Positions 7,047 through 58,129 of a stretch of 64,000 nt of DNA are shown piece by piece (positions within the stretch are counted from its first letter, which is position 1; the number at the start of each line of letters is the position of its first letter). The notes under the pieces are model-generated. The model saw nothing but the letters and a program-made list of their open reading frames with translations, was not told the origin of the DNA and did not search any database. Origin of the DNA: a virus; IMG/VR virus record IMGVR_UViG_3300045988_159436; one strand, 5' to 3'. The position numbers and the translations under genes were made by a program.

Positions 7047-7058
7047 TACTATCTCCTT

Positions 7059-27727: not shown

Positions 27728-27756
27728 TTGACAATCAGGAAACAATATGGTATAAT
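27728..27756 (+). promoter_or_regulatory. sigma70-type promoter inside capsid intron
   Basis: TTGACA-17-TGgTATAAT. Confidence 0.6.
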
Positions 27757-42100: not shown

Positions 42101-43168
42101 ATGCCAACAGTAGAGATTTATACAGATGAGCCTAGACAAGCCAGAATAAATGAGATTCCTTTAAAAATTAATACAATACATAAAAAAATCAAGGATTTTA
42201 GATTACAGGATAAGGGCGTAAGAATTGCTTATGATTTAGAGCTTAATGATACAGTATCTCGACAAGTTTCTTTTGAAAGAAGTTTTAAAGAAGAATTAGA
42301 AATAGAAGATAAGATTACTAAATTTTTTGAGAAAAAAACAGTATATAATTTAGAGACAGAAGAAATAGCAGAAAAGTTTACAGAAAAATTCTTTGAAAGC
42401 AGGATAGAAATTCAGGAATCTTTGAATAAAATATACGAATTAAATTTAGTAGAAGAATTAGAAATAGAAGATAAGATTACTAAATTTTTTGAGAAAAAAA
42501 CAGTATATAATTTAGAGACAGAAGAAATAGCAGAAAAGTTTACAGAAAAATTCTTTGAAAGCAGGATAGAAATTCAGGAATCTTTGAATAAAATATACGA
42601 ATTAAATTTAGTAGAAGAATTAGAAATAGAAGAATTAAAAGCTAAAGAATTGAGTAAGACATTTGAAGTATTTGTAGAATTAATAGAGATTTATTTAAGA
42701 CATGCTGGAACTGTATTAAGTGATTTAACTCTTTATAATGTTGCTTTAAATGAAACAAATTTTGACCAAGCAATAACTCCTGCTGGATATGATAGATTTA
42801 AAACAATGTTAACTGGGGATTATATTTACCAAAAAGCTTTATTTAGGTTTATTTTATCCGCTACAACTACAAGCGGTGAAAGACCAAATACAAGGGAGTA
42901 TATGCATAAAGTAGATGTTCCTGATACCTTTGAGACAGGAACAATAGAATTTGAGACTAATTGGAATCCTGCTACATATGAATTTAGTAGAGAATTTCAC
43001 ATTGTGCCAGAAGTTACCTATACTATTATTAGAGTTGAAAATATGGAAGAATTAAATCAAGCAGTAGTTTTACCAATAGAAGTTACAACTAAACATATAA
43101 TCGCACAATTAAAAGTTGGCAGTAAATATGTTAATGGTGCCGTTTCATTTTCTGCTAGAGGATATTAA
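42101..43168 (+). CDS. tail-associated protein containing perfect 168-bp (56-aa) tandem duplication
   Basis: 42289-42456 == 42457-42624. Confidence 0.5.
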   Translation: MPTVEIYTDEPRQARINEIPLKINTIHKKIKDFRLQDKGVRIAYDLELNDTVSRQVSFERSFKEELEIEDKITKFFEKKTVYNLETEEIAEKFTEKFFESRIEIQESLNKIYELNLVEELEIEDKITKFFEKKTVYNLETEEIAEKFTEKFFESRIEIQESLNKIYELNLVEELEIEELKAKELSKTFEVFVELIEIYLRHAGTVLSDLTLYNVALNETNFDQAITPAGYDRFKTMLTGDYIYQKALFRFILSATTTSGERPNTREYMHKVDVPDTFETGTIEFETNWNPATYEFSREFHIVPEVTYTIIRVENMEELNQAVVLPIEVTTKHIIAQLKVGSKYVNGAVSFSARGY

Positions 43169-43789: not shown

Positions 43790-45082
43790 ATGTCTAATGT
43801 AGATAGCAAGAATAAATTAAAAATGGTTATAGGGGGCGTTAAATATGGACTCCCTCTTTACGATAGTTATAATGATTTTTATAATAAAAAGTATGCAACA
43901 ATTTTATTGTCAAATGGAGATATCAGGTATATTGGATTGACACCAGATAGGTCAGATTTGACGGTTAATGCAGGATGTTATTTATCAGATAAAAAGCATT
44001 ATTTTCTTATAAGAGAAATAACTTCTAATTCAATTAATGCAGGAGGAAGTTTTTGGCAATATATTGCAAATAGTCAAACATTTCAATACCAGAAAATTAT
44101 TTCTACAATGGCTTATGCCCCTGAAAGCGGAATTTATAGAGTTGTTTTTAAAATAAAATGGTCTGGAAGTTATAATGATTATCATAATTATAGATACAAT
44201 AGTTTCTATAGATTCACTGTAAAACAAGGCGATAAAGTTCTAGCAGATACTGGTGAACATAGTTTAGCAGAAAGTATTTTTTATCCTTATTCTACTGGGA
44301 ATGCCTCACAATCTTCACAGGCAAGTGTTGCTAAATGGATGACATTAGGGGAACAGAGATTGTATTTAAAAGCTGGAAGTAATGCTTTTGATTTATGGTT
44401 AGGAATGCGTTTTGATAATAATAAACATGCCGCCGCATATGTTTCTCCTTTTCAAGTAGAAGCAACATATTTAAATTCTAATCAATTAGATGCTTTTTAT
44501 GATGATGGTATATTTAAATGCCCAGATAATGTTGATAAAATAAATGTTATAATGGCGGGTGGCGGTGGCGGTGGCGGCGCCTTAGTTCGTGTAAAGTATA
44601 AAAGTTATTCTGAACATTCAACTAATGTTTCATATTCTTATGGTTCTAATGATGGAAGTGATGGTCAATTTATAAATCGAGAAATTGCAGTTACTCCAAA
44701 TGCTTCGTATCCTGTTTTTATCGGAAAAGGTGGAGCCGCTAGTACCGATAATTTAAAAATAGAACTTGGAGAATATACTTTTTCCACTCCTGGGAATTAT
44801 GCCGCAGGAGATGGAAAAGATGGAACAGCTACTACTGCCTTTGGGCTTACTGCTAATGGAGGTAAAGGTGGTTATGGAGGACTTTTAACCATTTATGATT
44901 CTCACCGCACAAGAGAATTTATAAAAAGACCCCCAACAACTACAGAAAGTGCTAATGGAGGTAAAGGTGGTTCTTTAGTTACTCAATCATGGGGTGGAAT
45001 ATTTGACAGATATACAGGAGACATGAAAAATGCTTCAAATGGAGGCAATGGATATGTAAAGATAGAGTATTCAAAAAATTGA
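43790..45082 (+). CDS. glycine-rich tail fibre/receptor-binding protein (GGGGGGGAL, GGKGGYGG)
   Basis: Gly-rich motifs. Confidence 0.45.
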   Translation: MSNVDSKNKLKMVIGGVKYGLPLYDSYNDFYNKKYATILLSNGDIRYIGLTPDRSDLTVNAGCYLSDKKHYFLIREITSNSINAGGSFWQYIANSQTFQYQKIISTMAYAPESGIYRVVFKIKWSGSYNDYHNYRYNSFYRFTVKQGDKVLADTGEHSLAESIFYPYSTGNASQSSQASVAKWMTLGEQRLYLKAGSNAFDLWLGMRFDNNKHAAAYVSPFQVEATYLNSNQLDAFYDDGIFKCPDNVDKINVIMAGGGGGGGALVRVKYKSYSEHSTNVSYSYGSNDGSDGQFINREIAVTPNASYPVFIGKGGAASTDNLKIELGEYTFSTPGNYAAGDGKDGTATTAFGLTANGGKGGYGGLLTIYDSHRTREFIKRPPTTTESANGGKGGSLVTQSWGGIFDRYTGDMKNASNGGNGYVKIEYSKN

Positions 45083-45092
45083 GGTGATATAG

Positions 45093-45521
45093 TTGGCATA
45101 CCAAAAATTTACTGGTGAAGAATTTATTGATACAGAATTAACACCAAAATTAAATGATAATTTTGATGCTGTACGTTCTGGGAATGCAGGAACAGTTTTC
45201 CCAACAGAAAATTTAGTAATTGGAATGAAATTTTTTGATACAAGTTCAAATAAAGAATATACTTTAGTTAATTTAAATCCTATAGAATGGAAAAAATTAG
45301 GTGGAACAGTAATAAGAAGAACGTTTACTTTAGCAGATTGGGTAAAGAGCGGGAATAATTATATTTATAATCTTGGAGATGGACAGTATTCGGTAACTGG
45401 GGTAGGAGCGCAAAGTGGGAGCTCTTATAAGAGTGTGTTGATAGATGTTACTAATAATAACTTAGTTTCCATATCTGTTTTTAGTGGATACGTAGATTAT
45501 ACAGAATATAATGAAGAGTAG
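45093..45521 (+). CDS. tail fibre N-terminal anchor protein (paralog of N-terminus of 52692 fibre)
   Basis: MAYQKFTGEEFIDTELTPKLNDNFDAV vs MAYEAFTGEEYIDTDLVAKLNQNYDAC. Confidence 0.5.
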   Translation: MAYQKFTGEEFIDTELTPKLNDNFDAVRSGNAGTVFPTENLVIGMKFFDTSSNKEYTLVNLNPIEWKKLGGTVIRRTFTLADWVKSGNNYIYNLGDGQYSVTGVGAQSGSSYKSVLIDVTNNNLVSISVFSGYVDYTEYNEE

Positions 45522-45533
45522 GAGTGATAATTT

Positions 45534-47348
45534 TTGGAACATATAACTAAACAAGAAGATGTAACAGTAACTAGAATAGTAAGCTCTTTAAATACTTTAG
45601 ATGATGAAAATATGGTGGTAGTGTCCACTACAGAGCCAGAGAAGAAAAAAGATGGATTAATATGGGTTAATCCAAATCAAGAAGAAGCGGAAAAATTGGT
45701 TTATGTAGGACATACAGTTGGTGACATTTATCCCATTAGTTATACAGAGTTAGATTCAGGTCAGTTAATATTAAATGGTCAGTTAATAAGCAGAGAAATA
45801 TATGGTGTGTTATGGGATTGGTTGCAAAAACACCCTAGTTTAATAAAAACAGAAGTAGAGTGGAATGCATATTTAGCATCAACAAATAATGTATGTTGCC
45901 CATATTTTAGTATGGGAACTACTGAAACTAATTTTAGATTGCCTAAATATAGTGGAGTATTTATTAGAGCTGATTCTGATATAACTAAAATTAATCAATT
46001 TAGTGAAGATACACAAAGAAATATTCTTGGACAATTTACAACTTTTCGTACAAGTTGGGATGATGGTACTGGAGAATTACTTTTTGGAGTGAGTGGAGCT
46101 TTTGCAAAAGTAGAAACTGGTAATAATATGGACAGTATTCATCAAGATGGCTCAGACAGACAACAGCAAACTATAAATTTCGACGCTTCACGTTCAGTAG
46201 GCGCAGAGCATACTGGCGAAGAAGTAAAACCTAAATCAATAAATCAAATATGGGTTATTCAAGCTGTAGGAACTATTACTAATCAAACAAGTATTGATGT
46301 AAGTGCTATTCAAGAAGAAGTGCAACAATTAATGGATTTTGGGAATTATCAAGTAGCTTGCATTAAGGATAAATCCAATTATTTTTCAAGAGATAGTTTA
46401 TTTACTTCAAACAAAACGTCTATTGTTATTCCTAAGAATATGCGGATAAATATAAATGGAGAGGCTTATATAAGCACACGTAATGTCACTCTTAATACTT
46501 CAACATTAGGTGAAAATCTAGCGGGTAAAGATGTTTATATTTATGCCTTAGCAGGTTCTGGAACAGAGCCAGATTTTGTATTATCTTTAAATAGTACAGT
46601 TCCTACAGGATATACAGCAGAAAATAGCCGTAAAATAGGTGGTTTTCATTGTTTATGTAAAGATGTTGGGATTATAGAAGGGCATGCTTTATCTGGATAT
46701 GTTGCAGGGGATATCTTACCAGCAACAAGATGGGATTTAGAACACCGCCCAAAAGGAAATCCAGAAGGATTTGCTTATGAAGAATTAACGGATTGTTGGA
46801 TTGCGATTTATCTGCCAAGTTGGGACGGAACTAAATTAGTCAGTGTTTATAATGGAGTTATTGCTGATGGAAGCTCTGCTAAAAAATGGCATGGAGAAGC
46901 TTTTTATGAGCAATTTGTAAAACAAGGAATGCGTTTAGTTTGGCGGCACGAATTTCAAATGGGAGCAAAAGGTTCTAATGAACAAACAAATATTCAAGGT
47001 TCATCTGACCCTAATACTACAGGTGGGCATGTAGATACGGCTGGAAGAAGAATGATTAGTAATATAGGATTAGAAGATTGTTGTGGTGTATTATGGCAAT
47101 TTTCAATGGATTTAGGCTTTGCTGGCGGGTCTGGTTGGACAAATTCTACTTATAACTCTAATGTAGACGATAGAAGTTATGGACGAACATATGGAACGCT
47201 TTATCGCTTGCTGTTGGGTTCTAGCTGGAATGTTGGCTCGTATTGCGGTTCTCGTTCGGCTAATTGCAATGATTCTTCGGCTTATGTGTCTGTCCACAAC
47301 TCTTCTCGTAGTGCGTCTGAGCCGAGAATTGAAAATTTGAGAAACTAA
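45534..47348 (+). CDS. DGR target protein: receptor-binding protein with C-terminal C-type-lectin-like variable region
   Basis: VR occupies last ~37 codons. Confidence 0.8.
   Translation: MEHITKQEDVTVTRIVSSLNTLDDENMVVVSTTEPEKKKDGLIWVNPNQEEAEKLVYVGHTVGDIYPISYTELDSGQLILNGQLISREIYGVLWDWLQKHPSLIKTEVEWNAYLASTNNVCCPYFSMGTTETNFRLPKYSGVFIRADSDITKINQFSEDTQRNILGQFTTFRTSWDDGTGELLFGVSGAFAKVETGNNMDSIHQDGSDRQQQTINFDASRSVGAEHTGEEVKPKSINQIWVIQAVGTITNQTSIDVSAIQEEVQQLMDFGNYQVACIKDKSNYFSRDSLFTSNKTSIVIPKNMRININGEAYISTRNVTLNTSTLGENLAGKDVYIYALAGSGTEPDFVLSLNSTVPTGYTAENSRKIGGFHCLCKDVGIIEGHALSGYVAGDILPATRWDLEHRPKGNPEGFAYEELTDCWIAIYLPSWDGTKLVSVYNGVIADGSSAKKWHGEAFYEQFVKQGMRLVWRHEFQMGAKGSNEQTNIQGSSDPNTTGGHVDTAGRRMISNIGLEDCCGVLWQFSMDLGFAGGSGWTNSTYNSNVDDRSYGRTYGTLYRLLLGSSWNVGSYCGSRSANCNDSSAYVSVHNSSRSASEPRIENLRN
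47208..47320 (+). repeat. DGR variable repeat (VR)
   Basis: 113 nt; 15 mismatches to TR, all at TR adenines. Confidence 0.85.
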
Positions 47349-47495
47349 GAAACCGAGAAAAAGTTTGGATAGTTGGACAGAGAGGTCTAGAAACCGAGAG
47401 ACCGAGACTAAAATTTTTAGTTGTGAGAAAATAAAGAAGATTATATAATAATATTATATAAGGGCATATATGATACTTAGATTGGCAAGATTTTT

Positions 47496-47608
47496 TTGCT
47501 GTTGAGTTCTAACTGGAATAATGGCACGAATTGCAGTTCTCGTTCAGCTAATTGCAATGATTCATCAGCTAATGTGAATGTCAACAACTCTTCTCGTAGT
47601 ACGTCTGA
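47496..47608 (+). repeat. DGR template repeat (TR)
   Basis: non-coding copy, Asn-codon (AAY) rich in VR frame. Confidence 0.85.
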
Positions 47609-47759
47609 TACGTGGGTGATTTTAAAGCAGGTGCGGCTTACCCTCGGCTGATTATATATGCCTCACTGAAAAGTGAAATACAAAACAGGGAGAAATAGGG
47701 GCTAGTAAAGTAATTGAACGTCCTTATTTCTAAATTTTATTAAATTAAAAGGATAATTA

Positions 47760-48776
47760 ATGAAAAGAAAAGGAAATTTATGGACTAAAATAATAGACAA
47801 AAGCAATTTATATTTGGCTTTTGAGAAAGCTAAAAGACATAAAAGTTGGCAAAGAAAGGTTAAAATTATAGAAGCAAATTTAGATTATTATATTGAAAAG
47901 TTACAAAATGATTTGATAACAGGTCAATATAAAACTGCTGAATATAAGTTAAAAACAATTTATGAGCCAAAGAAAAGAGATATTTATATTTTGCCATTTT
48001 ATCCAGATAGGATAGTTCATCACGCTATTATGAATGTTTTAGAGCCTATATGGGATAATAGATTTATTTATAATAGTTATGCTTGTCGAAAAAATAAAGG
48101 TCAACATAAAGGCAGTATAAAATGTATGGAATACACTAGAAAGTTTAAATATTGTTTGAAATGTGATATAAGTAAATTTTATCCTTCTATTAATCACAGG
48201 CTTCTAAAGAAAGTGATACGTAAAAAAATAAAATGTAAAAAGACTTTAAATTTATTAGATGAGATAATTGATAGTGTTGATACGCCTGTAAATGTTCCTA
48301 TAGGAAATTATTTAAGTCAGTGGTTTGGAAACTTATATTTAAATGAGTTAGATGTTTTTCTAAAGCAAGAGAATTGTGTAAAAAATTATTTAAGATATTG
48401 CGATGATTTTTTATTATTTTCTGATGATAAAACATATTTAAATAAAATGGCTAAAATAATAAATGAATATGTAGTTAATATTTTAGAATTAAAACTTAGC
48501 AAATGTGTTTTGTTTCCAACAGCACAAGGAGTTGATTTTTTAGGATATAGACATTTCCATGCTGGTTATGTTTTGGTAAGAAAATCAACAGCTAAAAGAA
48601 TGAAGCGTAGGATTAAAAGATTAAAATATGAATTATTAAAGAATAAAATAAGTCAAGATAAGGCTTTATCTGTTGTAGCAAGTTTATCTGGGGGGTTAAG
48701 ATGGGCTAATAGTTACAATTTAAAAATGTCTTTAGAGCTAGAATTATTAAAAAAGGAATTAGGAGGAAACTCTTAG
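47760..48776 (+). CDS. DGR reverse transcriptase
   Basis: PIGNYLSQWFGNLYLNELD and YCDDFLLF motifs. Confidence 0.85.
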   Translation: MKRKGNLWTKIIDKSNLYLAFEKAKRHKSWQRKVKIIEANLDYYIEKLQNDLITGQYKTAEYKLKTIYEPKKRDIYILPFYPDRIVHHAIMNVLEPIWDNRFIYNSYACRKNKGQHKGSIKCMEYTRKFKYCLKCDISKFYPSINHRLLKKVIRKKIKCKKTLNLLDEIIDSVDTPVNVPIGNYLSQWFGNLYLNELDVFLKQENCVKNYLRYCDDFLLFSDDKTYLNKMAKIINEYVVNILELKLSKCVLFPTAQGVDFLGYRHFHAGYVLVRKSTAKRMKRRIKRLKYELLKNKISQDKALSVVASLSGGLRWANSYNLKMSLELELLKKELGGNS

Positions 48777-49055
48777 GTGGACAAGTTCAGTAGTTTTGCA
48801 GAAGAAAGATTAGTTGGAGATAAGGTTAGTGTTTCTGACATTTTAAATAAAGAAATAACAGTTTTATCTTATAAAATAATGAAAAGTAAAATAGAAGATG
48901 ATAATTATGCTCAAATTCAAATTGAAATAAATGGTGAAAAGAAAGTTGTATTTACAAGTTCTAAAGTTTTAAAAGACCAATTAGAAACTTATAAAGACCA
49001 TATTCCTTTTATTGCAACAATAATTAAAACAAGAAAATATTTTTCTTTTAGTTAA
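48777..49055 (+). CDS. hypothetical protein (possible DGR accessory)
   Basis: immediately downstream of RT. Confidence 0.35.
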   Translation: MDKFSSFAEERLVGDKVSVSDILNKEITVLSYKIMKSKIEDDNYAQIQIEINGEKKVVFTSSKVLKDQLETYKDHIPFIATIIKTRKYFSFS

Positions 49056-49067
49056 GGGGGAAATGTA

Positions 49068-49355
49068 ATGATAGGCTATCCAAAACATTTAAATACAAAA
49101 GCAGATTATGAATATGTAAAAAGTAATTTTCCAAAGGAAATGTGGGAAAATGATTTTCGTGTTTTATTGGAGACCGCACATGATTGGTTTTTTATTAGAG
49201 AATTAGAAAAAGGAGAGGTTCCTGTATTATTAGAAAATCAAAAGATAGAAAAAACGGAAGAAAAAGATTGTTTATTTGAATATAAATATGATGAAAATTG
49301 CACATTAAATAGATTAGGATTTACAATAGAAGAAATTGAAGAATATTTAAAATAA
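49068..49355 (+). CDS. hypothetical protein
   Basis: ORF track. Confidence 0.4.
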   Translation: MIGYPKHLNTKADYEYVKSNFPKEMWENDFRVLLETAHDWFFIRELEKGEVPVLLENQKIEKTEEKDCLFEYKYDENCTLNRLGFTIEEIEEYLK

Positions 49356-49358
49356 TAG

Positions 49359-49387
49359 TTGACAATTTTTACATAATATGGTATAAT
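49359..49387 (+). promoter_or_regulatory. sigma70-type promoter
   Basis: TTGACA-17-TGgTATAAT. Confidence 0.65.
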
Positions 49388-49451
49388 ATTTATAGTGTTC
49401 AGATAACAGCTATGACTGTTAAGTTATTACTTAAAATTTAATAAGTAATGC

Positions 49452-49480
49452 TTGACAGTCTTTTTATTTTATGTTATAAT
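49452..49480 (+). promoter_or_regulatory. sigma70-type promoter
   Basis: TTGACA-17-TGtTATAAT. Confidence 0.65.
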
Positions 49481-49489
49481 AGTATTGAG

Positions 49490-49699
49490 GTGGAGGAAAT
49501 ATTGAAAGATTTTGAGAAACGTTTAAGTAAACAAAATTTTATGTTAATTAAAGTAAATGAATATTATTTTATTAGAAAAAGCAGAGCGTTTAAAAATAGT
49601 TATATGGTATTAGATTCAAAAGGGTATTTGATAGATTGTTTACAAGAAAAAATAGTTCGGCAAGTTTTTTTAGGCATAGATTTGGGGGAATGGGAATGA
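49490..49699 (+). CDS. WE-tail family small protein A (..GEWE*), start uncertain (GTG 49490/TTG 49502)
   Basis: C-terminal module FLGIDLGEWE. Confidence 0.45.
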   Translation: MEEILKDFEKRLSKQNFMLIKVNEYYFIRKSRAFKNSYMVLDSKGYLIDCLQEKIVRQVFLGIDLGEWE

Positions 49700-49911
49700 T
49701 TAAAAAACCTAATAATAATTGTAAATTATGCAAGTGTCTTCATAACTATAGCTATTTTAAAAAAGGTGAGTATTATTGGGCTGAATTAGGAGAACGTTTT
49801 TTTGCTGGTGCAGTTGTAGTATATTTTGGGAAGGACAGACATAATATGTGCTCTGTGGTTTTTTCCGACTTTTTCATTAAATTTCGATGGGAGGATTCAC
49901 AATGGGAATGA
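49690..49911 (+). CDS. WE-tail family small protein B (MGM.. ..QWE*)
   Basis: ATGGGAAT start overlaps previous EWE-stop. Confidence 0.5.
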   Translation: MGMIKKPNNNCKLCKCLHNYSYFKKGEYYWAELGERFFAGAVVVYFGKDRHNMCSVVFSDFFIKFRWEDSQWE

Positions 49912-50108
49912 GGATAACAGTAACTCCAAAAAGACAACTTATACATTATAATTTAAATGAGCAATATATAGCAGTGCCTGTATTTAGTGTGTATGGAAGT
50001 ATGGAATATAATATTTATAATAAAAAAGGCAATCTTTTAAATTCTTGGGTATCCCAAGAGTCATTATTTAATTTTTTTAAAAAGGTAGTAGATAAAGAAT
50101 GGGAATAA
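49902..50108 (+). CDS. WE-tail family small protein C (MGM.. ..KEWE*)
   Basis: same junction architecture. Confidence 0.5.
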   Translation: MGMRITVTPKRQLIHYNLNEQYIAVPVFSVYGSMEYNIYNKKGNLLNSWVSQESLFNFFKKVVDKEWE

Positions 50109-50308
50109 AGTTAGTAAAGGCAAAAGATAATTCGGCTCATTTTAGTCGTGGAGAGTTGTATAAAGTAACCCCATATAAAACTATGTATGGAGAAACAAAA
50201 TATACTATTTATACTGAGAATGGGTGGTTTATAAAAAGTTTTGTAACAGAAGGGGAATTACTTTATTTTTTTGATGTAGTTAATAATTATAATTTTGGAT
50301 GGGAATAA
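50099..50308 (+). CDS. WE-tail family small protein D (MGI.. ..FGWE*)
   Basis: same junction architecture. Confidence 0.5.
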   Translation: MGIKLVKAKDNSAHFSRGELYKVTPYKTMYGETKYTIYTENGWFIKSFVTEGELLYFFDVVNNYNFGWE

Positions 50309-50323
50309 AAGGAGGAAATAAAA

Positions 50324-50701
50324 ATGGAACCAATTATTAGTCCGTGGGTATTTTATTTTATTGATAAGTTAGATGAGGTGTCTGGATTGCCTTTATCAAT
50401 TTTTGCTTTTGGAATGTTAACAAATTTTATATTAGTTATGGTTACTGAAACATCAGAAGAGTTTAAAAGGTGGTTTTTTCCAAAAGCGTGGTTAGCACTT
50501 TTTTTGCTATCAGTTATGTTTGTTTTTTTAGTTCCTACAAAAGAAACGGCATACAAAATGATTATAGCAAATTATGTAACGCCTAACAGTATTTCTATAG
50601 TAAAAGAAGCCACAGAAGATAACATTGCTTCTTTAATAGATAAAATAGCAGTTGCTTCACAGGCATTATCAGGAAGGGAGAAAGAATCAAAATCCAAATG
50701 A
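50324..50701 (+). CDS. membrane protein (2 TM)
   Basis: hydrophobic segments. Confidence 0.45.
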   Translation: MEPIISPWVFYFIDKLDEVSGLPLSIFAFGMLTNFILVMVTETSEEFKRWFFPKAWLALFLLSVMFVFLVPTKETAYKMIIANYVTPNSISIVKEATEDNIASLIDKIAVASQALSGREKESKSK

Positions 50702-50898
50702 AACAGATAGAAAAAGTAAAGAAATTATATAAACCAAAATTTGAAATAGTAAGAGCAGAGAAAGTAAAAGATAATTATATATTATTCTTAGATGATAAAA
50801 ATATTATATTAGAAGAAGATGCTTTTAAATCATTATTTGAGCTTTATAGTGCTTTAGTTTCTTACTATGATGTAAGAAAGGATGAAACAAATGATTGA
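50698..50898 (+). CDS. hypothetical small protein
   Basis: ORF track. Confidence 0.4.
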   Translation: MKQIEKVKKLYKPKFEIVRAEKVKDNYILFLDDKNIILEEDAFKSLFELYSALVSYYDVRKDETND

Positions 50899-50952
50899 AT
50901 TATTCAATAGGGATTGTTTTGAAGTAGCAAAACGTAGAATAGAGGAAATAAA

Positions 50953-51486
50953 ATGATTATACGCAAAGATGATTATTTTAAAGTTCGTACTTTTTTTAAG
51001 TATGATGGTAATTCCTTTTTTAAAGGAGATTTATTACGAATAGTAAATAGTTGGTCAGATGAGGAAGCGGACTTTTGTAGTGAGTATTTTGAGTTATTTT
51101 TAAAGAAAAACAATTTAATGTTTAATCAAAAGTTTCAGGTTTTGGATTATGATGGAAAATATGCTGTTGGTAATGGGGCAAAATTTTGGATAGCAGATAA
51201 TAAACTTCATTGTGATAATCCAGAGATGAATACTCGGCTTATTATGTTAGAACTATTTGCTGGTAATTGTAGTGTAAAACAATTTCCTTATTATCCCACA
51301 AATGGTGATGTATATTTTTATGTCTATATGGACGGAAGCAATAATCAGGGAGTTGTATCTAAGGGAGTATTTTATGGTAATTTAGTAGACCAGCTTTTGC
51401 GAAGTTTAGGAAAATGTTATAGAACTAGAAACGAAGCAGAAGAGCATTTAAAAGAGGATGTTAATTTTTTATTAAAAGGAAGATGA
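50953..51486 (+). CDS. hypothetical protein
   Basis: ORF track. Confidence 0.45.
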   Translation: MIIRKDDYFKVRTFFKYDGNSFFKGDLLRIVNSWSDEEADFCSEYFELFLKKNNLMFNQKFQVLDYDGKYAVGNGAKFWIADNKLHCDNPEMNTRLIMLELFAGNCSVKQFPYYPTNGDVYFYVYMDGSNNQGVVSKGVFYGNLVDQLLRSLGKCYRTRNEAEEHLKEDVNFLLKGR

Positions 51487-51490
51487 AAAA

Positions 51491-51742
51491 ATGGAAACTA
51501 AATTATTAATTATTTTAGAAAGTTTAGAAAACAAAGGGGATATAAATTCTGAAATAGATTTATCTGAAACAGGTTATACTCCAAAAGTTATTAAAGAAGC
51601 ATTACAGTCTTTAGGTTATAAAATGGTTAGTGGTTCTTGGGATTGTTACGATTTTTCAGAGGAATATGAGAAAGAGGGGGCATCAAATGTGGTGCTATCT
51701 TTTAATGCAGAAACTTTTAAATTCACAATAATGGGGGTATAA
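51491..51742 (+). CDS. hypothetical small protein
   Basis: ORF track. Confidence 0.4.
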   Translation: METKLLIILESLENKGDINSEIDLSETGYTPKVIKEALQSLGYKMVSGSWDCYDFSEEYEKEGASNVVLSFNAETFKFTIMGV

Positions 51743-51768
51743 AAATAACACTAGAAGATATTGCAGTA

Positions 51769-52065
51769 ATGAGCGCAAAAGTTCCGCAAGAATTGTTAAT
51801 TTCTTATATACAAAATGTGTCTTTAATTTATCTTATAGCGATTTTTGTTGGCATCCTTTTCTTGGTATCTGTTATCCTTTTTCTGGCATATTGGTTAAAG
51901 AATGGGTTAGAAACGTTAGATGAGGGGACATTAACTATTATCGCACTTTTTTTAGTAAGCACTTCTCTTTTTACTATTGGAGCTTCTTTTCAGGCTTTTG
52001 AAAGTTTTATTTTTTATTTTAATTGCTATTTTAATCCATTAGTTATGATATTACAGGCGGTGTAA
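51769..52065 (+). CDS. membrane protein (3 TM)
   Basis: hydrophobic. Confidence 0.4.
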   Translation: MSAKVPQELLISYIQNVSLIYLIAIFVGILFLVSVILFLAYWLKNGLETLDEGTLTIIALFLVSTSLFTIGASFQAFESFIFYFNCYFNPLVMILQAV

Positions 52066-52070
52066 AAATA

Positions 52071-52277
52071 ATGTATAAAGTTTGGGTAGTAATAAGTGGA
52101 AAAAAATACTGGATAAAAAGTGCTGATTTTTTCCAAATTAGTGGAACGCAAATTGAAAACTCTGATGATGTAAAAATTTATCTTACTAAGGAAGATGCAG
52201 AAGAGGCATTAAAGCAGGTTCGTATAGATATGAGAGGGACAGCTACAGATTCAGGAATATTAGAAATTATGAAGTAA
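52071..52277 (+). CDS. small protein, YKVW..GKKYW family (paralog 1)
   Basis: paralogous to next ORF. Confidence 0.4.
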   Translation: MYKVWVVISGKKYWIKSADFFQISGTQIENSDDVKIYLTKEDAEEALKQVRIDMRGTATDSGILEIMK

Positions 52278-52289
52278 GAGGTTATAAAA

Positions 52290-52562
52290 ATGGCATATAA
52301 AGTTTGGATAACAGCACGTGGGAAGAAATATTGGGTAACAAAATTTGTAAACATTGCAGGAGTTCTTGAAATTCATTTTACACAAGATATAACAGATAAT
52401 GTAGCTATATATCCCAGTAAGGATATAGCAAGACGAGCATTAATAGCTACTTTAAATCATATACCAGAAGCTGTAGAAGGAGGAATGTTGGAAATTCCTG
52501 CAAAAATAATTAAAAAAAAAAGGTTGACAAAAATCCGAAAGTATGCTATAATAGACATATAA
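52290..52562 (+). CDS. small protein, YKVW..GKKYW family (paralog 2)
   Basis: paralogy. Confidence 0.4.
   Translation: MAYKVWITARGKKYWVTKFVNIAGVLEIHFTQDITDNVAIYPSKDIARRALIATLNHIPEAVEGGMLEIPAKIIKKKRLTKIRKYAIIDI
52524..52552 (+). promoter_or_regulatory. sigma70-type promoter (within 3' end of 52290 ORF) for tail fibre operon
   Basis: TTGACA-17-TGcTATAAT. Confidence 0.6.
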
Positions 52563-52582
52563 ATAAAGAGTAAAAACAATGG

Positions 52583-52608
52583 GGAAGCTCTGAAAGGGCT
52601 TCCTTTTT
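52583..52608 (+). terminator. rho-independent terminator
   Basis: ggaagctctgaaagggcttcc + T5. Confidence 0.55.
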
Positions 52609-52691
52609 AGCATATTGAATGGAGGGTTGAAATGGTAGAGAATAAAATGCCATTATATTTCAATGCTGGGGAATTGGGCGGGGTGAGATGA

Positions 52692-54569
52692 ATGGCTTAT
52701 GAAGCTTTCACTGGTGAAGAGTATATAGATACAGATTTAGTAGCGAAACTAAATCAAAATTATGATGCTTGCGGAAAACTGGCAAGTAAAAACACATGGT
52801 CAGCAGATAATGACTTTACAGCAGGTTTGACAGTAAACAAAACTCCTACAGTAAATACTGATGTATCGAATAAAAAATATGTAGATGATAGTATAGCTAA
52901 CGGAGATGTAAATTCGGCTAAATATTTAAACATAACGAATTTTATCCCTTCAAATAGCGATTTTAATGATTACAAAACTCCTGGAAAATATCAAGTACAA
53001 AGCTATACAGTAGCAAGCACAATGGCAAATATCCCCACTAGCTATAATGATGCAACGCCAAGGAGCGGTGTATTAAGTGTATTGATTGGATTTAATGCCC
53101 TTAGAACAAGTTTAGTCCAGATTTATCGAACTTATGGGAGTAGTTATGTAGTTTCAAGAACGTATCAACGCTGTTTTTACCATGAAAATAGTCGTTGGAC
53201 TGCATGGCGAGAAATTGCTTGTACTGATGAAGTAGGCTTATTAAATCAAGCAAATACCTATACAGCATTAAATATTTTCAGGGCAAATATTGGCGTATCT
53301 AACGGAACTGCGGCAGGTAGCAGTGGTACTGTAAGTTTTGGTGTTTCTCCGACAGGTGAAACAGTACAAGCAAGAATTGGAACAGATAATTTAGGTGGAT
53401 TATTTTATTACGCAAGCACAAATCAACCTCATGTATTTAGAGTTGGAACGAATAATAATGTGTTTGTCATACGTGACGATAATACAAAAGTAACTTTTTC
53501 TAGCAATAATAAGTCCTTTGCAACGGTCACACATGATGGTGTTGCAAAATGGTTAGGTAATGCTAATACAGCAACAAAGTTACAAACCGCACGCACAATA
53601 AATGGAGTATCTTTTGATGGCACAGCAAACATTACAATAGCTGACTCTACAAAGCTCCCTATTGCTGGTGGAACAATGACAGGTAATTTAACACTTAAAG
53701 GCAATCCAACAGCAGATTTGATGGCGGCTACAAAAAAATATGTAGATGATAGTGTTGCAAGTGCAACAGCTGGTTTACTGAGTTCTAACAATATTTGGAC
53801 TGGCAGTAATACATATAATAGGGATATTCATATAACAAATGGTTCGTCCGCTGGTTCGAGTGGTACGTTATATTTAGGTGTTAAACCTGCGAATGAAACA
53901 GTACAAGCAAGAATTGGAACAGATAATTTAGGTGGATTATTTTATTACGCAAGCACAAATCAACCTCATGTATTTAGAGTTGGAACGAATAATAATGTGT
54001 TTGTCATACGTGACGATAATACAAAAGTAACTTTTTCTAGCAATAATAAGTCCTTTGCAACGGTCACACATGATGGTGTTGCAAAATGGTTAGGTAATTC
54101 TGCCACAGCAACAAAACTAGCAACTGCAAGGACTATCACAGCAAATCTTGCAAGTAGCACTGCTGGTAGCTTTGACGGCTCGGCAAATATAACAGTCGGA
54201 GTTACTGGTACTTTACCAATCGCAAATGGTGGAACAGGTTTAACTTCTGCTCCTTCTATGTTAGTAAACCTTGCTAGTACAACAGCCACATCTCCGTTAC
54301 AGGCATCTCCACGTCCAGGTGTGACAGGGACTTTACCGATAGCAAACGGCGGCACTGGACAGACAACAGCGGCAGGAGTAAGAAATGCTTTAGGGCTGGG
54401 AAACACGACAGGAGCAGTTCCTATAGCAAATGGAGGAACAGGTGCAACAACAGCCGCCGCCGCAAGGACTGCATTAGGATGTGCACCTGCATATACCTAT
54501 AGTACAACTGATTTAACCGCTGGAAGCTCTAAATTAACCACAGGCACACTTTATATTGTGTATGAATAA
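52692..54569 (+). CDS. tail fibre protein with internal ~212-bp direct repeat and IANGGTGxT collagen-like repeats
   Basis: N-terminal anchor paralogous to 45093; repeats 53358-53570 and 53896-54108. Confidence 0.6.
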   Translation: MAYEAFTGEEYIDTDLVAKLNQNYDACGKLASKNTWSADNDFTAGLTVNKTPTVNTDVSNKKYVDDSIANGDVNSAKYLNITNFIPSNSDFNDYKTPGKYQVQSYTVASTMANIPTSYNDATPRSGVLSVLIGFNALRTSLVQIYRTYGSSYVVSRTYQRCFYHENSRWTAWREIACTDEVGLLNQANTYTALNIFRANIGVSNGTAAGSSGTVSFGVSPTGETVQARIGTDNLGGLFYYASTNQPHVFRVGTNNNVFVIRDDNTKVTFSSNNKSFATVTHDGVAKWLGNANTATKLQTARTINGVSFDGTANITIADSTKLPIAGGTMTGNLTLKGNPTADLMAATKKYVDDSVASATAGLLSSNNIWTGSNTYNRDIHITNGSSAGSSGTLYLGVKPANETVQARIGTDNLGGLFYYASTNQPHVFRVGTNNNVFVIRDDNTKVTFSSNNKSFATVTHDGVAKWLGNSATATKLATARTITANLASSTAGSFDGSANITVGVTGTLPIANGGTGLTSAPSMLVNLASTTATSPLQASPRPGVTGTLPIANGGTGQTTAAGVRNALGLGNTTGAVPIANGGTGATTAAAARTALGCAPAYTYSTTDLTAGSSKLTTGTLYIVYE

Positions 54570-54581
54570 AGAGGTGCGAAA

Positions 54582-55193
54582 ATGGCAAAAAGCATTTATA
54601 TAGGTGTAGATGGTAAAGCAAGAAAAGCAAAGAATATATACATTGGAGTAGACGGCAAGGCAAGAAAAGTCAAAAAAATGTATATAGGAGTAAATGGCGT
54701 AGCAAGATTATGTTACACGTCCGAAGTAACAGTAACGGTCACAATCGTACAATCAGCAAATCAAACAATAACAGTAATTTGCAATGGCAATTCATATACA
54801 TCAACATTCACAGCAGAAGCAGGGTCAACTTATACGGCAAGTATATCAGCAAGTACAGGTTATAATGCAGGCACATTAAGCAGTACAAGTGGAACATTGA
54901 CAGATAATATCACTATTAGTGCAACAGCCGCTACCTTGAAAACCTATACTTATACGATTAATCAGCCTACAGGTGGAACGATTACTGTTACAGTTGATGG
55001 AGTTGCATATACATCAACCTTTACTGTTCAGCATGGCAAAACTGCAAGCAATTTGTGTACGCCGAATAGTGGATACACCTTTAAGACATTTACATTGTCA
55101 GGAAGCTATCAAACTGCAAGCGCAAATACATTAGCAATAAATGGCGATGCTGAAATTGGAGCTGTATTAGAAAAGGAGGACGAAGATGTTTAA
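54582..55193 (+). CDS. tail fibre-associated protein (IYIGVDGKARK x3 N-terminal repeats)
   Basis: ORF track. Confidence 0.45.
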   Translation: MAKSIYIGVDGKARKAKNIYIGVDGKARKVKKMYIGVNGVARLCYTSEVTVTVTIVQSANQTITVICNGNSYTSTFTAEAGSTYTASISASTGYNAGTLSSTSGTLTDNITISATAATLKTYTYTINQPTGGTITVTVDGVAYTSTFTVQHGKTASNLCTPNSGYTFKTFTLSGSYQTASANTLAINGDAEIGAVLEKEDEDV

Positions 55194-55461
55194 TTGGTTG
55201 ATAAAATTATTAGGCGGGAAAACAAAATCGGAATATGAAGATATGCAAAAAGAACTAAATGAAAAATGTGCTAAATTATCAAACACATTAGACAGTTATG
55301 CGAATCTTGATTTTGTTGCAAGTGGTGAATATTCTTTTAGTGTAAAAGCAAATTCACCTTATAGTATTTTAGTTAAAAAAGGTCAAAATCTTATAATCAC
55401 TGGTTATAACAAAGATGGAGAGCTTTTAGAAAAAATTGATGTAAATAAGGAGGACGAATAA
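55186..55461 (+). CDS. hypothetical small protein (MFNWLIK..)
   Basis: ORF track. Confidence 0.4.
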   Translation: MFNWLIKLLGGKTKSEYEDMQKELNEKCAKLSNTLDSYANLDFVASGEYSFSVKANSPYSILVKKGQNLIITGYNKDGELLEKIDVNKEDE

Positions 55462-55997
55462 AATGTTTAATAAATTAATTAGGGGGGGGGCAGGCAGATA
55501 AAGAATTGTCTGTCAGCCGTCTTCCAAAATTACAATTACACGCACTAACTGATAATCCTATGAATATTACAGTCACAGGGAATATTACGGTTAGTGCGAC
55601 ACTAGAAAATAGTGGACAAATAGGTTTAACGGTCGGTCAATATACTTATGGCGGAAATCATTGGCAGTACGGTTATAGTAGCGCAGACTATGCATCAGAT
55701 CAAGTATATGGCAGTCTAAGTCCTGATACGTTCTATGGAATTAAAATAACTTCATTAATCGCAGGATTAATAGTTGATCCTAGTAGTCAGCAGCCTTTGC
55801 TACATATACTATTGATATCTTTTGCTAATAGTTTAAGTCAGAGTTCGATAAAAGTGACAATTAATAATAAGACTTATACGCTTAGTGCCCCTAATGGAAG
55901 CGCCTATTATTATGTAAATTTACCTGATAATGATACATCATTAGTGATGTGGTTACAATCACAGGTAGGTAAGACCATAACTGTAAACCTAGAGTAG
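55462..55997 (+). pseudogene. receptor-binding tip cassette paralog 1; ATG 55462 (strong AAGGAGG RBS) is out of frame with body because of G9 tract 55482-55490 (putative phase-variable)
   Basis: G8 would fuse MFNKLIRGG.. to ..SVSRLPKLQLHALTDNPMNITVTGN..; as written it terminates after 12 codons. Confidence 0.5.
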
Positions 55998-56046
55998 CAT
56001 TATTTTCAATATGTAATATTCCTCTGTGAGAAATCGGAGGAAAAAG

Positions 56047-56466
56047 ATGGCTTTGACAGACAATCCTATGAGTTTAGTGGTTACAGGCAATGTAACAGTT
56101 GGGGCAACATTAGAAGCAAGTGTACCGACTACTGAAACAAGATTGTTGAGTACTATGGATGTGAATACAACGGTTACTATTACAGTGCCTGCGGGTGTAA
56201 AAGTATTAAAAGTATCAGGTGCTGTAGACCATGAACACGAAGGTGAAGTAGCTTTAGATGTATATTCAGTAAATAGCAAAAAATATTGGTTATCTGTATA
56301 TAATTACGGATATGCTAGTGATATTTGGTATGTAGGAGTTACACCCAATAAAAGTTATACATTAAAGTTATCAACTGATAGCGAAACTGGCACTGAATCT
56401 GGAAGTGTAACTATTAGTTATTCACAATCAATTAACAATCAAACGCCTAAAGTAACCGATTACTAA
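56047..56466 (+). CDS. receptor-binding tip cassette paralog 2 (MALTDNPMSLVVTGNV...TPKVTDY)
   Basis: conserved N and C termini, variable middle. Confidence 0.55.
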   Translation: MALTDNPMSLVVTGNVTVGATLEASVPTTETRLLSTMDVNTTVTITVPAGVKVLKVSGAVDHEHEGEVALDVYSVNSKKYWLSVYNYGYASDIWYVGVTPNKSYTLKLSTDSETGTESGSVTISYSQSINNQTPKVTDY

Positions 56467-56487
56467 ACTCAAAATCTGCCGTATATT

Positions 56488-56901
56488 ATGGCTTTAACTG
56501 ATAATCCAATGTCAATTATCGTGACAGGCAATGTCACCATAGGAGCTAGCTTAGAGGCTAGTATTCCTAGTGGGGAAGTTACTTTAGCACATGGCAGTAC
56601 CTTTACAGTTCCCGCAGGAATAACAGTATTAAGAGCTTCATTTAATCAATCTGGATATTTAAGTTTGATTACGTATGTAGGTGTAACACCCAATAAATCC
56701 TATAAATTGTATTCTAATTGGACTGAATATAATTATGGAGAAGGTGAAGAATACTTGTTGTATAATGCTAACAATAATAAATCTTGGATTGATTATACTA
56801 TAGGCAATTTAGATGTTGATACTGGTTACACTGAGCTGAATTTTAAACTCGAATGGTCGCCTACTATCAATTCACACGCAGTAGAAGTTACAGACTATTA
56901 A
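56488..56901 (+). CDS. receptor-binding tip cassette paralog 3: constant N-terminus + variable C-terminal cassette A
   Basis: MALTDNPMSIIVTGNVTIGASLEASIP...SPTINSHAVEVTDY. Confidence 0.55.
   Translation: MALTDNPMSIIVTGNVTIGASLEASIPSGEVTLAHGSTFTVPAGITVLRASFNQSGYLSLITYVGVTPNKSYKLYSNWTEYNYGEGEEYLLYNANNNKSWIDYTIGNLDVDTGYTELNFKLEWSPTINSHAVEVTDY
56535..56569. repeat. 35-bp inverted repeat, left copy (caccataggagctagcttagaggctagtattccta), internal dyad TAGGAG..TATTCCTA
   Basis: perfect inverted copy at 57203-57237. Confidence 0.85.
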
Positions 56902-57237
56902 TAATCAGTAATATTAGGAGATTTCGCATTAATAGTTGGAGACCAAGATATCAAAATTCTAGCTCTATCATCCCTAGCACTTATCCAATATTTACTAGAG
57001 CTAGAATAATAGCAATAATAAAAATCATTGCTACCAACCACGACTGTTAACGTATATGTTTTTCCACCAGTTACTCCTACATAATTAGGAGATTTTTCCC
57101 CCACATCCTGAACTTCAACAACTTTTATATTAGTGGGTATAGTCACACTCCATTTATTTGTAGAGCCCGGCGATGAATATGTAGGAGATTGTACACTTCC
57201 TGTAGGAATACTAGCCTCTAAGCTAGCTCCTATGGTG
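56898..57237 (-). other. promoterless inverted C-terminal cassette B (..TGSVQSP...SPTINAKSPNITDY) convergent with cassette A
   Basis: homology to paralogs begins exactly at the inverted repeat; upstream minus-strand sequence is non-homologous. Confidence 0.5.
57203..57237. repeat. 35-bp inverted repeat, right copy
   Basis: reverse complement identical to 56535-56569. Confidence 0.85.
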
Positions 57238-57262
57238 AGGGGATTTAAGAAAGGAATTGTAG

Positions 57263-57850
57263 ATGGTAAAAATACTAATAATGGTACTATTTTTCTTGTT
57301 CCCCACATTAGCGGATGCTCATGTTGTAATGGGTGGTGATAGGGGAGAAACAATGAAGAATATAAAAATAGTAGAAAATTATTTTAAAAATAATTTTAAT
57401 TTAACTTTACATAGAGATGTTGCTGTTATTAATGTTGGTTCAGTAAAAGAATATGCGGATTTGTTAAAATACTTTAAAATAAATAATGCAGAAGAAATAG
57501 CTCAAAAAAGTGGAGCGGTAACATCTCGAAATTCTGTAATAGTTATAAATACTGCTGGAACAGATAAGAGTGATAGATTGTTTCTTTTAGCGCATGAAAT
57601 GACACATCAATATCAGTTCCAGCAGAAGGGAAAAGCGGCTACAGAAGATATGGCAATGCTTGAAGGATTTGCTGATTTAATAGCCAATGACATAAGTGGA
57701 GCTTACATATCTATTGAAAATTATGGAATAAAGCGGGAAGATTTAAAGAGTTATTCAGATTTCAACGAAGCACAAAAACAGTATGGAAATAAGGTATATG
57801 AACAGGCAAGATATTATGCAAGAAAAGAGAAGTTTTTAGATTATTACTAA
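57263..57850 (+). CDS. secreted HExxH zinc metallopeptidase-like protein
   Basis: signal peptide; LLAHEMTHQYQF. Confidence 0.45.
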   Translation: MVKILIMVLFFLFPTLADAHVVMGGDRGETMKNIKIVENYFKNNFNLTLHRDVAVINVGSVKEYADLLKYFKINNAEEIAQKSGAVTSRNSVIVINTAGTDKSDRLFLLAHEMTHQYQFQQKGKAATEDMAMLEGFADLIANDISGAYISIENYGIKREDLKSYSDFNEAQKQYGNKVYEQARYYARKEKFLDYY

Positions 57851-57913
57851 GGAGCGTATAAAATGACTCATAGTGTGGGGAAAGTTGATAAAAAATAAGG
57901 AGGATGCTTTATC

Positions 57914-58129
57914 TTGAAAATTGTAGATAAGTTTTATATTCGGTGTGTTAGTTATTTTGCACAAGAAGAGTGTGAAGAGTTGTGTTTACAGTTATTTCAA
58001 TTAAGTGATGAAGTTCTTGCCTTATCAAATGAAGTAAACATAATGCTATTTGATTGTTTTGATTTAAAGAAAGTATACTTAAATCAACGAGCATTAAATT
58101 GTTTAAGGAAAGCGGAAATTTGTCCGTAA
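57914..58129 (+). CDS. hypothetical small protein
   Basis: ORF track. Confidence 0.35.
   Translation: MKIVDKFYIRCVSYFAQEECEELCLQLFQLSDEVLALSNEVNIMLFDCFDLKKVYLNQRALNCLRKAEICP

Follow-up and report, generated by a model that had tools for sequence, protein, structure and literature searches.

Three candidate variation mechanisms in the putative host-recognition region of an uncultivated human gut phage: a retroelement, a homopolymeric G tract and an invertible segment

The locus and its features

IMG/VR virus record IMGVR_UViG_3300045988_159436 provides a 64,000 nucleotide (nt) stretch of phage DNA, which is termed here the window and to which all coordinates refer unless another contig is named. 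Positions 45,093–57,850 of the window hold a tail fiber gene with a diversity-generating retroelement (DGR) and, downstream of these, a second fiber module that ends with three small paralogous genes, termed tip paralogs 1, 2 and 3. An earlier reading of the letters alone (the sequence-only reading) proposed five independent sources of variation within 12 kb: the DGR, a pair of alternative fiber genes, internal repeats, a G homopolymer in tip paralog 1 and an inverted repeat in tip paralog 3. All five features are present and are non-random. The DGR, the G tract and the inversion vary, but the fiber pair and the repeats do not stand as switches. It is quite probable that the host-recognition region combines three independent variation mechanisms, each of which acts on a different protein. 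The anatomy and the reading frames are read directly from the sequence, and every state described below occurs in nature. All comparisons are of consensus contigs, and the contigs that differ in segment orientation or in G tract length come from strains that are 1–7% diverged.

The diversity-generating retroelement

The DGR consists of the following features.

45534–47348, + strand: DGR target, an Mtd-like tail fiber protein of 604 amino acids (aa) with a TTG start (Pfam mtd_2nd, 7e-20; PHROG tail protein, 7.5e-49, and several tail fiber families)
47208–47320, + strand: variable region (VR), approximately the last 45 codons of the target (87% identity to the template region)
47496–47608, + strand: non-coding template region (TR) that separates the target from the reverse transcriptase (from the TR/VR alignment)
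47760–48776, + strand: DGR reverse transcriptase (RT), 338 aa (Pfam RVT_1, 2.7e-17)

VR and TR have 113 nt in common with 87% identity, and the VR spans approximately residues 559–596 of the 604 aa target. The internal mismatches are all at TR adenines (16 of 16; seven A to G, six A to T and three A to C). The aligned 121 nt slice of this window has 31 template adenines, of which 16 are matched by another base in the VR. In four relatives (L015, L017, L018 and L022) the TR is near-invariant, with one or two substitutions, and each VR diverges at its own subset of TR adenines. The DGR is active, as shown by the divergence of VRs among relatives at TR adenines while the TR is kept.

Judged from these alignments, the DGR is of the textbook type. 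An RT adjoins the TR, TR/VR differences are restricted to adenines, the VR is at the 3′ end of its target, and VR divergence is accompanied by a stable TR. Assignment of the target to the Mtd/C-type-lectin type is via Pfam and PHROG matches and not via a C-type-lectin fold model. The last ~45 codons of the Mtd-like fiber would receive RT-made copies of the TR that have errors at adenines only. The proposal that a DGR rewrites the C-terminus of the 45534 protein is thereby borne out.

The G tract of tip paralog 1

Tip paralog 1 and its tract are located as follows.

55463–55997, + strand: tip paralog 1 with leader ATG at 55463, OFF in the window (ribosome-binding site AAGGAGG at 55448; frame analysis)
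55482–55490, + strand: G9 homopolymer, a contingency (slipped-strand) tract (length variation in 36 related contigs)

The initiator Met of paralogs 2 and 3 is a His in paralog 1, and thus paralog 1 needs an upstream start. The ATG at 55463 is followed, 19 nt in the 3′ direction, by the start of G9, which is the sole run of at least eight G or C residues in the window (32.5% GC). With G9, the reading frame from this ATG stops after 12 codons, i.e. after MFNKLIRGGAGR. Loss of one G (G8) places the ATG in frame with the open reading frame (ORF) 55506–55997, and G11 does likewise. The G8 product reads MFNKLIRGGQADKELSVSRLP...HALTDNPM. This exact product is found in 10 of the 120 best database protein clusters, and in-frame products of 162–173 aa have been called in independent assemblies.

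Tract length was compared in 36 related contigs drawn from JGI, ENA, NCBI and Logan. The lengths are G7 (three contigs), G8 (15), G9 (12), G10 (three) and G11 (three); thus half of the contigs (18) are ON, with G8 or G11, and 18 are OFF. The locus has a homopolymer of at least seven residues near the start of the coding sequence that sets the reading frame, and its length is polymorphic with both ON and OFF states, as in a contingency locus. These data support the reading that the G tract behaves as a frameshift gate. Paralog 1 would be translated only at G8 or G11, tract length would be altered by polymerase slippage, and the G9 of the window would be an OFF state. The sequence-only reading, in which G9 gates translation of tip paralog 1, agrees with the G7–G11 range and with the in-frame products in databases.

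More distant relatives (43–47% identity) have other leaders, with G7–G8 or C8–C10 at the same relative position in tip paralogs, and their tip arrays contain up to six paralogs. In L134 (positions 3340–7391; IMG/VR 3300045988_152794) six tip paralogs are directly 3′ of the DGR RT, and arrays of this type are also seen in L130, L135, L136, L144 and L145. In these arrays two of the paralog leaders carry G8 (G7 in L145) and C10 (C8 in L144), both out of frame in the contigs seen. Homopolymer gating is thus a conserved theme of the phage group.

The leader displays a likeness to another gene of the module: the 91 aa protein encoded directly upstream starts with MFNWLIKLLGG... (positions 55186–55240) and the G tract leader with MFNKLIRGG... 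(55463–55500). This suggests that the leader originated by duplication of the upstream gene start. A second, shorter G run (G7, at 20618–20624) is found elsewhere in the window, inside ORF 19969–20778, which is DNA repair exonuclease-like.

The invertible segment of tip paralog 3

Tip paralog 3 and the segment have the following arrangement.

56488–56901, + strand: tip paralog 3 as it stands in the window, with cassette A after a constant 27 aa N-terminus (AF2 model a beta-sandwich, pLDDT 86.8, N-terminus of low confidence)
56534–56569, + strand: left inverted-repeat arm, which encodes ...VTIGASLEASIP (internal imperfect dyad, z = -2.5)
56570–57202, no strand: invertible segment of 633 bp, with cassette A (+) and cassette B (-) tail to tail (reversed between conserved flanks in relatives)
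56898–57202, - strand: silent alternative C-terminal cassette B, 101 codons and a stop (reads on from the arm in frame; lacks its own N-terminus)
57203–57238, - strand: right inverted-repeat arm (36 nt perfect match to the left arm)

The inverted repeat is 36 nt long and 100% complementary with 633 nt between the arms, and none of 100 shuffled sequences gave such a match. With up to three mismatches allowed, the window holds only the two arm copies. Cassettes A and B are convergent and their stop codons overlap. Cassette B is homologous to other tip C-termini and ends in the ...TDY motif of the family. The sequence upstream of the right arm is unrelated, and in one right-flank lineage (RF2) it is without a start codon. 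Cassette B is therefore silent until flipped. An inversion between the 36 bp arms would exchange ~110 C-terminal residues of paralog 3, with cassette B taking the place of A. The N-terminal DNA of paralogs 1 and 2 has diverged (64–70% identity) and neither takes part in the inversion.

Relatives of the module were gathered by exact match to the arm sequence. Conservation of the arm relative to its flanks was computed and then set aside, as choosing loci by exact arm match biases that comparison. Between conserved flanks, about 31 contigs have the segment oriented as in the window and eight have it flipped, so that cassette B follows the constant N-terminus. The flipped relatives are L002, L003, L005, L014, L092, L099 and L113, and L116 likewise for a 684 bp allele. 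Both states are found with both right-flank types and with both cassette B alleles (633 and 684 bp), and flank similarity does not predict orientation. L114 and L116, which are from sister samples, are 98–99.9% identical except for a clean inversion. Database protein clusters P0094, P0104 and P0107 provide an independent record of cassette A read from the right flank. Together these observations argue for repeated flipping. Arm positions 1–3 remain with the outer flank, which indicates that exchange occurs deeper inside the arm. Assembler mis-orientation is unlikely since the arm is shorter than reads and typical final k-mers.

The more distant tip genes (43–47% identity) show no inverted repeat nearby, and the inverton is thus recent and lineage-specific. 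In L081 the G tract leader and the inverted repeat are on one gene.

Several derivatives of the segment were observed. L095 (5047–5133) and L096 (2172–2258), from ENA ERZ1027052 / ERZ1027056, have lost both cassettes; here the constant N-terminus and TCACCA run directly into the reverse arm, with the junction at a 5 bp TAGGA microhomology. The junction in L115 (4013–4311) links nucleotide 266 of paralog 2 with the reverse arm, at the inner edge of the latter. Metagenome contigs L098, L101 and L111 stop exactly at the inner boundary of the arm. Such ends would be expected where both continuations are present in the sample, and assembler settings bear on this reading.

The sequence-only reading described a 35 bp inverted repeat that brackets two convergent cassettes with the architecture of Mu G and P1 C. 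The repeat (36 nt, not 35) and the cassettes are present, both orientations occur in nature, and the Mu G/P1 C logic stands; a Gin/Cin-type system does not.

The question of the inverting enzyme

The gene that neighbors the right arm does not encode a recombinase.

57353–57850, + strand: HEXXH metallopeptidase-like protein (weak Pfam DUF6782 and BSP matches; no PHROG match)

Resolvase, Phage_integrase and related families gave no Pfam match among all window ORFs of at least 70 aa. The search was extended to a related contig, IMG/VR 3300045988_163979, whose circular map was followed via loci L029, L047, L071 and L040 and then scanned. In the rest of this genome no serine or tyrosine recombinase was found among the larger ORFs (~110 aa upward). 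This relative is without the inversion module, and module-bearing contigs were therefore examined for extra ORFs; these show only four, one of which is GIY-YIG-like, and no recombinase. ‘Serglycin’ matches in a concatenated Pfam scan proved to be artefacts of Gly-Ser linkers. With no invertase adjacent or genome-encoded, the system is not of the Gin/Cin type.

The phage does have recombination genes of its own, a RecA homologue (2.8e-47) and a Holliday-junction resolvase (3.8e-20). These would cross over within the 33–36 identical bases of the arms at a low frequency. Since no site-specific recombinase is encoded, inversion by the phage's own homologous-recombination machinery is the leading guess as to the enzyme; it is slightly favored, though close to evenly balanced. 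The module is recombination-prone, as it displays hybrid paralogs, swapped C-termini and microhomology deletions (L095, L096 and L115).

The tip protein family

Tip paralog 2 is located between the two variable paralogs.

56047–56466, + strand: tip paralog 2, 139 aa, without a switch (ORF list; homologue search)

The three small paralogs have a conserved N-terminus of ~27 aa and belong to a beta-sandwich family. The family has 1,926 database relatives, none of which is annotated. It has no Pfam or PHROG match, and a tblastn search with a tip paralog against 50,697 deposited phage genomes gave no match. Fold searches gave weak or uncharacterised matches that are mixed and include carbohydrate-binding modules and galectins.

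Variation between close relatives is concentrated in residues ~74–120 (cassette A, window 56700–56860). Among homologues that are 87–99% identical, substitutions cluster at a few Asn/Tyr/Ser/Thr/Ile-rich positions, a pattern that resembles DGR output. Cassette A as a second DGR target was ruled out, as there is no TR-like copy in the window. The hypervariability of cassette A probably represents diversifying selection on a binding surface.

The same N-terminus also carries a swapped 409 aa C-terminus. L028 (3386–4615; IMG/VR 3300029466_000010) and L134 (4981–6204) display a 23 aa constant N-terminus (MALTDNPMSIIVTGNVTIGASLE) fused to an unrelated C-terminal domain of ~380 aa with repeated motifs, which is possibly a beta-propeller. 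These fusions show modular exchange of C-terminal heads. In addition, the natural hybrids P0121 and P0154 (169 aa) consist of the N-terminal two-thirds of paralog 2 and the C-terminal part of cassette A, joined at the conserved YVGVTPNKSYKL. The variation, the fusions and the position after the fiber gene fit a design of an anchor with a receptor-binding head. Receptor binding by the small proteins, which the sequence-only reading took for fiber tips, is inferred on these grounds.

Alternative explanations

The tip assignment has a competing explanation, i.e. that the TDY-terminated paralogs are fiber chaperones, decoration or lectin-like proteins, or anti-defence factors, in which case both switches would tune something besides host range. 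The absence of a Pfam or PHROG family and of the family itself from the 50,697 deposited genomes, the weak and mixed fold matches (carbohydrate-binding modules, galectins), and the L134 array with no preceding fiber gene are all compatible with it. It is nevertheless considered unlikely: the genes are in the tail module directly 3′ of the fiber gene, the conserved 27 aa N-terminus is found with freely swapped C-terminal domains, including the 380 aa one, and hypervariable, surface-like positions separate close relatives. Known precedents for such switching in phages all involve receptor-binding proteins. As to the switching itself, evidence that comes wholly from consensus contigs of different strains would also be expected if nothing switches, i.e. 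if the states are fixed strain polymorphisms or artefacts of assembly or sequencing, with the inverted repeat left over from a duplication and a subsequent inversion. Logan contigs (k = 31) do break at the 36 bp arm for purely technical reasons. However, reads exceed the arm in length, as does the final k of SPAdes-type assemblies, so that these give the orientation directly. Each orientation is seen repeatedly, in two flank lineages and with either cassette B allele, independently of flank phylogeny, and cassette B is without its own start codon in the RF2 lineage. For the G tract, 18 of the 36 contigs have an in-frame tract, the lengths (15 contigs with G8 and 12 with G9) are spread too widely for consensus error, and in other lineages this position of the gene is occupied by different G or C tracts. 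An absence of switching is therefore regarded as very improbable.

The choice of enzyme is less clear-cut. Inversion may be site-specific and carried out either in trans, by a master invertase of the host with many target loci, or by a phage recombinase that escaped recognition. The 30 bp core of the arm that contains the dyad would then be the binding site, and the segment a functional analogue of Mu G and P1 C with an outsourced enzyme. This is a serious possibility, although we hold it to be the less probable one. The arm has an imperfect dyad with a 4–6 bp center, which just 2 of 200 shuffles equal in folding; the architecture is as in Mu G and P1 C; exchange is inside the arm, with positions 1–3 left on the outer flank; and arms with a single mismatch persist in L006, L009, L012, L075 and L114. 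Gut bacteria have trans-acting invertases that serve several unlinked switches, e.g. RecV of Clostridioides difficile and Mpi of Bacteroides fragilis. However, no recombinase was found among the window ORFs of at least 70 aa or the larger ORFs in the rest of the relative's genome. The degenerate dyad pattern gave seven unrelated matches in 185,579 reference genomes, approximately the number expected by chance. Deletion junctions are at the 5 bp microhomology on the arm edge and not at the arm center. The long contigs mostly cross the segment unbroken, which suggests a low switching rate.

Several points count against the interpretation preferred here, i.e. three active mechanisms with inversion by homologous recombination. 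A length of 33–36 bp is short for RecA-type recombination, and the imperfect dyad of the arm (TAGGA-G-CTAGC / GCTAG-TAT-TCCTA, z = -2.5) looks as a binding site for a recombinase would be expected to look. The length of a homopolymer can be miscalled. For both the orientation and the G tract, the comparison is between strains (1–7% diverged) and not within a population. ORFs 48777–49055 and 49068–49355, which flank the RT, show no Pfam match to an Avd-like or HRDC accessory; Avd-type accessory proteins are not universal among DGRs. Attachment of the tips to fiber 2 is uncertain, since the L134 array follows the DGR directly without a fiber 2 gene.

The fiber genes, the second module and internal duplications

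The two fiber-type genes and the remaining features of the module are listed below.

42289–42633, + strand: perfect tandem duplication, a 162 bp unit present 2.1 times, in ORF 42101–43168 (unannotated tail-region protein; TRF, 100% matches)
45093–45521, + strand: 142 aa protein with the shared N-terminal anchor motif (M)AYQKFTGEEFIDTEL... (18 of 27 residues identical with the 52692 product; ends TAG..TGA TAA)
52524–52552, + strand: sigma-70 promoter upstream of the second fiber module, TTGACA-17-TATAAT with TG (12 of 12 consensus positions; a consensus match only)
52692–54569, + strand: second tail fiber, 625 aa, which shares the N-terminal anchor and contains a domain duplicated internally (PHROG tail fiber families down to 1.5e-21)
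54582–55461, + strand: two conserved module genes, which encode a 203 aa protein with IGVDGKARKVKK repeats and the 91 aa protein (conserved in relatives)

The N-termini of the 45093 and 52692 products are identical at 18 of 27 residues (E-value = 2e-10) with no similarity further on. The shared 27 aa N-terminus confirms the homologous anchors of the sequence-only reading, but alternation of the two proteins, as against co-assembly, is unsupported. The 45093 product is a protein distinct from the DGR target, with TAG..TGA TAA between the two ORFs. Their expression as one protein in the same frame, by readthrough or stop-codon recoding, was rejected because of three stops within five codons.

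The second module would be promoter-led and consist of fiber 2, the 203 aa protein, the 91 aa protein and then the three paralogous beta-sandwich tip proteins. In the close lineage, tip paralogs are invariably preceded by the 203 aa and 91 aa genes. Some relatives retain a DGR fiber of 91–95% identity and have a wholly different second module, which indicates that the second module is an exchangeable cassette. The fiber 2/tip/inverton module is also found in a second, ~65 kb phage lineage: L074 (NCBI GCA_022728295.1, JAIJJQ010000020.1, 65 kb), L073, L075 and L081. This lineage has another right flank and other downstream genes (Amidase_2 and a sigma-70 region 4 protein). The module has thus moved horizontally.

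Both of the repeats reported by the sequence-only reading are present, with corrected dimensions. The tandem duplication, given there as 168 bp, has a unit of 162 bp and lies in an ORF (42101) that is without fiber annotation; one copy of the unit is present in L015 and L017 and two in L016. The direct repeat in fiber 2, given as ~212 bp, is 300 nt long with 88% identity (53287–53586 and 53824–54123, at a spacing of 537 nt) and has a perfect core of 205 bp (53357–53561 = 53894–54098). Fiber 2 length in relatives ranges from 396 to 625 aa with zero to two copies of the duplicated domain. A switch role is not upheld for either repeat, where the variation is in copy number only. The N-terminal fiber homology and the internal duplications are ordinary modular evolution and not switches.

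Comparison with known systems

The DGR resembles that of Bordetella phage BPP-1 (Brt, TR/VR, Mtd) in that the RT adjoins a non-coding TR, the VR is at the 3′ end of an Mtd-like fiber gene, the differences are at adenines only, and the target has the Mtd second domain. It differs in that no Avd-like accessory is recognised, the order is target-TR-RT, and the host is probably a low-GC Gram-positive gut bacterium.

Similar to Mu G/Gin, P1 C/Cin, e14 P/Pin and p15B Min, the segment has inverted repeats of ~34–36 bp inside a coding sequence. As in Mu G and P1 C, these are at the junction of a constant N-terminus and two opposed alternative C-terminal cassettes, and both orientations are found in nature, here between strains. 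Unlike the Din family, no adjacent or genome-encoded invertase is found, serine invertase included, and the neighbor is the HEXXH-like gene. The constant part is 27 aa, the cassettes are ~100–110 aa with no chaperone gene, and the phage is apparently virulent with no integrase. The arm (TAGGAGCTAGCTTAGAGGCTAGTATTCCTA core) is, by eye, unlike gix/hix. The inversion works like Mu G and P1 C and is not a member of the Din family. The R64 shufflon (Rci tyrosine recombinase, multiple sfx sites) is similar in that rearrangement yields alternative C-termini of an adhesin-like tip protein, but here there is one site pair, i.e. only two arm copies in the window, and no Rci; no tyrosine recombinase was found by Pfam, and paralogs 1 and 2 are not involved.

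The best-known intragenic inversions of bacteria are recombinase-linked. Bacterial programmed inversions are comparable to the present case in that inversion within a coding sequence swaps the C-terminal part of a protein. The surveys of gene-altering programmed inversions and intragenic invertons (PMC9881135; bioRxiv 10.1101/2023.03.11.532203) concern bacterial chromosomes and prophages, whereas the case here is a lytic-type phage without a recombinase. Hypermutable polyG tracts are described in receptor-binding genes of Campylobacter phages (Sorensen et al. 2021, cited in PMC10877375 and PMC12247996), and contingency loci in T2/T4 (PMC12633550). As in the Campylobacter phages, the frame of a putative receptor-binding gene is set by the length of a homopolymer within the 5′ part of its coding sequence, and this length varies among isolates. 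The differences are the other phage group and habitat, the gating of one paralog of an array and, in some relatives, the presence of the tract on a gene that also carries the inversion switch.

In the literature searched, the three mechanisms appear side by side as separate host-range determinants. The sequence-only reading was not aware of a description of the combination in one phage. Within the literature searched this is borne out, as no single phage was found described with a DGR, a homopolymer tract and inversion. Each mechanism is known individually.

Genome context

The gene content of the window is of the tailed-phage type. It encodes a terminase, an SPP1-type portal, a major head protein, a tail terminator and a baseplate hub, and a 1,496 aa ORF (32753–37243) is, by position only, at the place of the tape measure. 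Also present are 15 tRNAs, NrdD, DNA ligase and several homing endonucleases. The closest deposited terminase is that of Bacillus phage BCD7 (49% identity), and megablast of positions 45000–58000 against the 50,697 deposited phage genomes gave no match. The metagenomes that yielded related contigs are from human gut.

Comparison with contig 3300045988_163979 shows the genome to be circularly permuted and ~96 kb in size. Outside of the window, this relative has DnaB, primase, DNA polymerase A, the RecA homologue, the Holliday-junction resolvase, PD-(D/E)XK nucleases and QueC- and DpdA-like genes. No integrase was found in the window or in this relative. The source is apparently a virulent, uncultivated siphovirus of human gut with a ~96 kb genome, and its host is probably a low-GC Gram-positive gut bacterium.

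Other observations

NrdD (14346–17903) is split into three ORFs, 14346–15320, 16461–16817 and 17001–17903, with a helix-turn-helix/LAGLIDADG ORF (15382–16287) between them; no group I intron was found in this region at the Rfam threshold. The major head protein (25162–28312) is seemingly interrupted as well: the N-terminal part (25162–25836) is followed by a LAGLIDADG_2 ORF (25905–26537), an HNH_3 ORF (26893–27477) and then 28004–28312, which resembles the C-terminal part. A skipping-rope RNA (Rfam RF02924, 49.7 bits, E-value = 8e-9) is at 13666–13746, just upstream of the second tRNA cluster.

QueC, a DpdA-like queuine tRNA-ribosyltransferase homologue and a radical-SAM protein are found at L071 2562–5220 and L047 19228–19884 (relative 3300045988_163979) and at window positions 2445–3899. 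Two zinc-ribbon amidoligase proteins accompany the QueC/DpdA-like set. The QueC, DpdA-like and radical-SAM genes suggest 7-deazaguanine modification of the phage DNA.

Significance

In practice, phage therapy is limited mainly by host range, which is also central to phage-bacterium dynamics in the gut. The locus described here suggests that an abundant, uncultivated lineage of gut phages may pre-generate adsorption variants on three time scales, with the DGR producing a large space of point variants, the G tract an ON/OFF choice and the inversion an A/B choice.

A wider and rather doubtful proposal is that widespread virulent phages of the human gut run a combinatorial bet-hedging on an unannotated tip family, by way of gated paralog arrays, an inverton in one lineage that has no invertase (and relies on its own RecA and resolvase or on a hijacked host invertase), and a DGR on a separate fiber. 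If true, a programmed inversion that is recombinase-independent or host-enzyme-dependent would here be described in a lytic phage for the first time, and no earlier phage would have been shown with all three switch classes. Should general recombination or a host invertase be responsible for the inversion, such variation would escape searches that depend on a nearby recombinase. Programmed variation of this type may on that account be under-counted in phage genomes. The tip family itself is a candidate new family of receptor-binding proteins of gut Bacillota phages.

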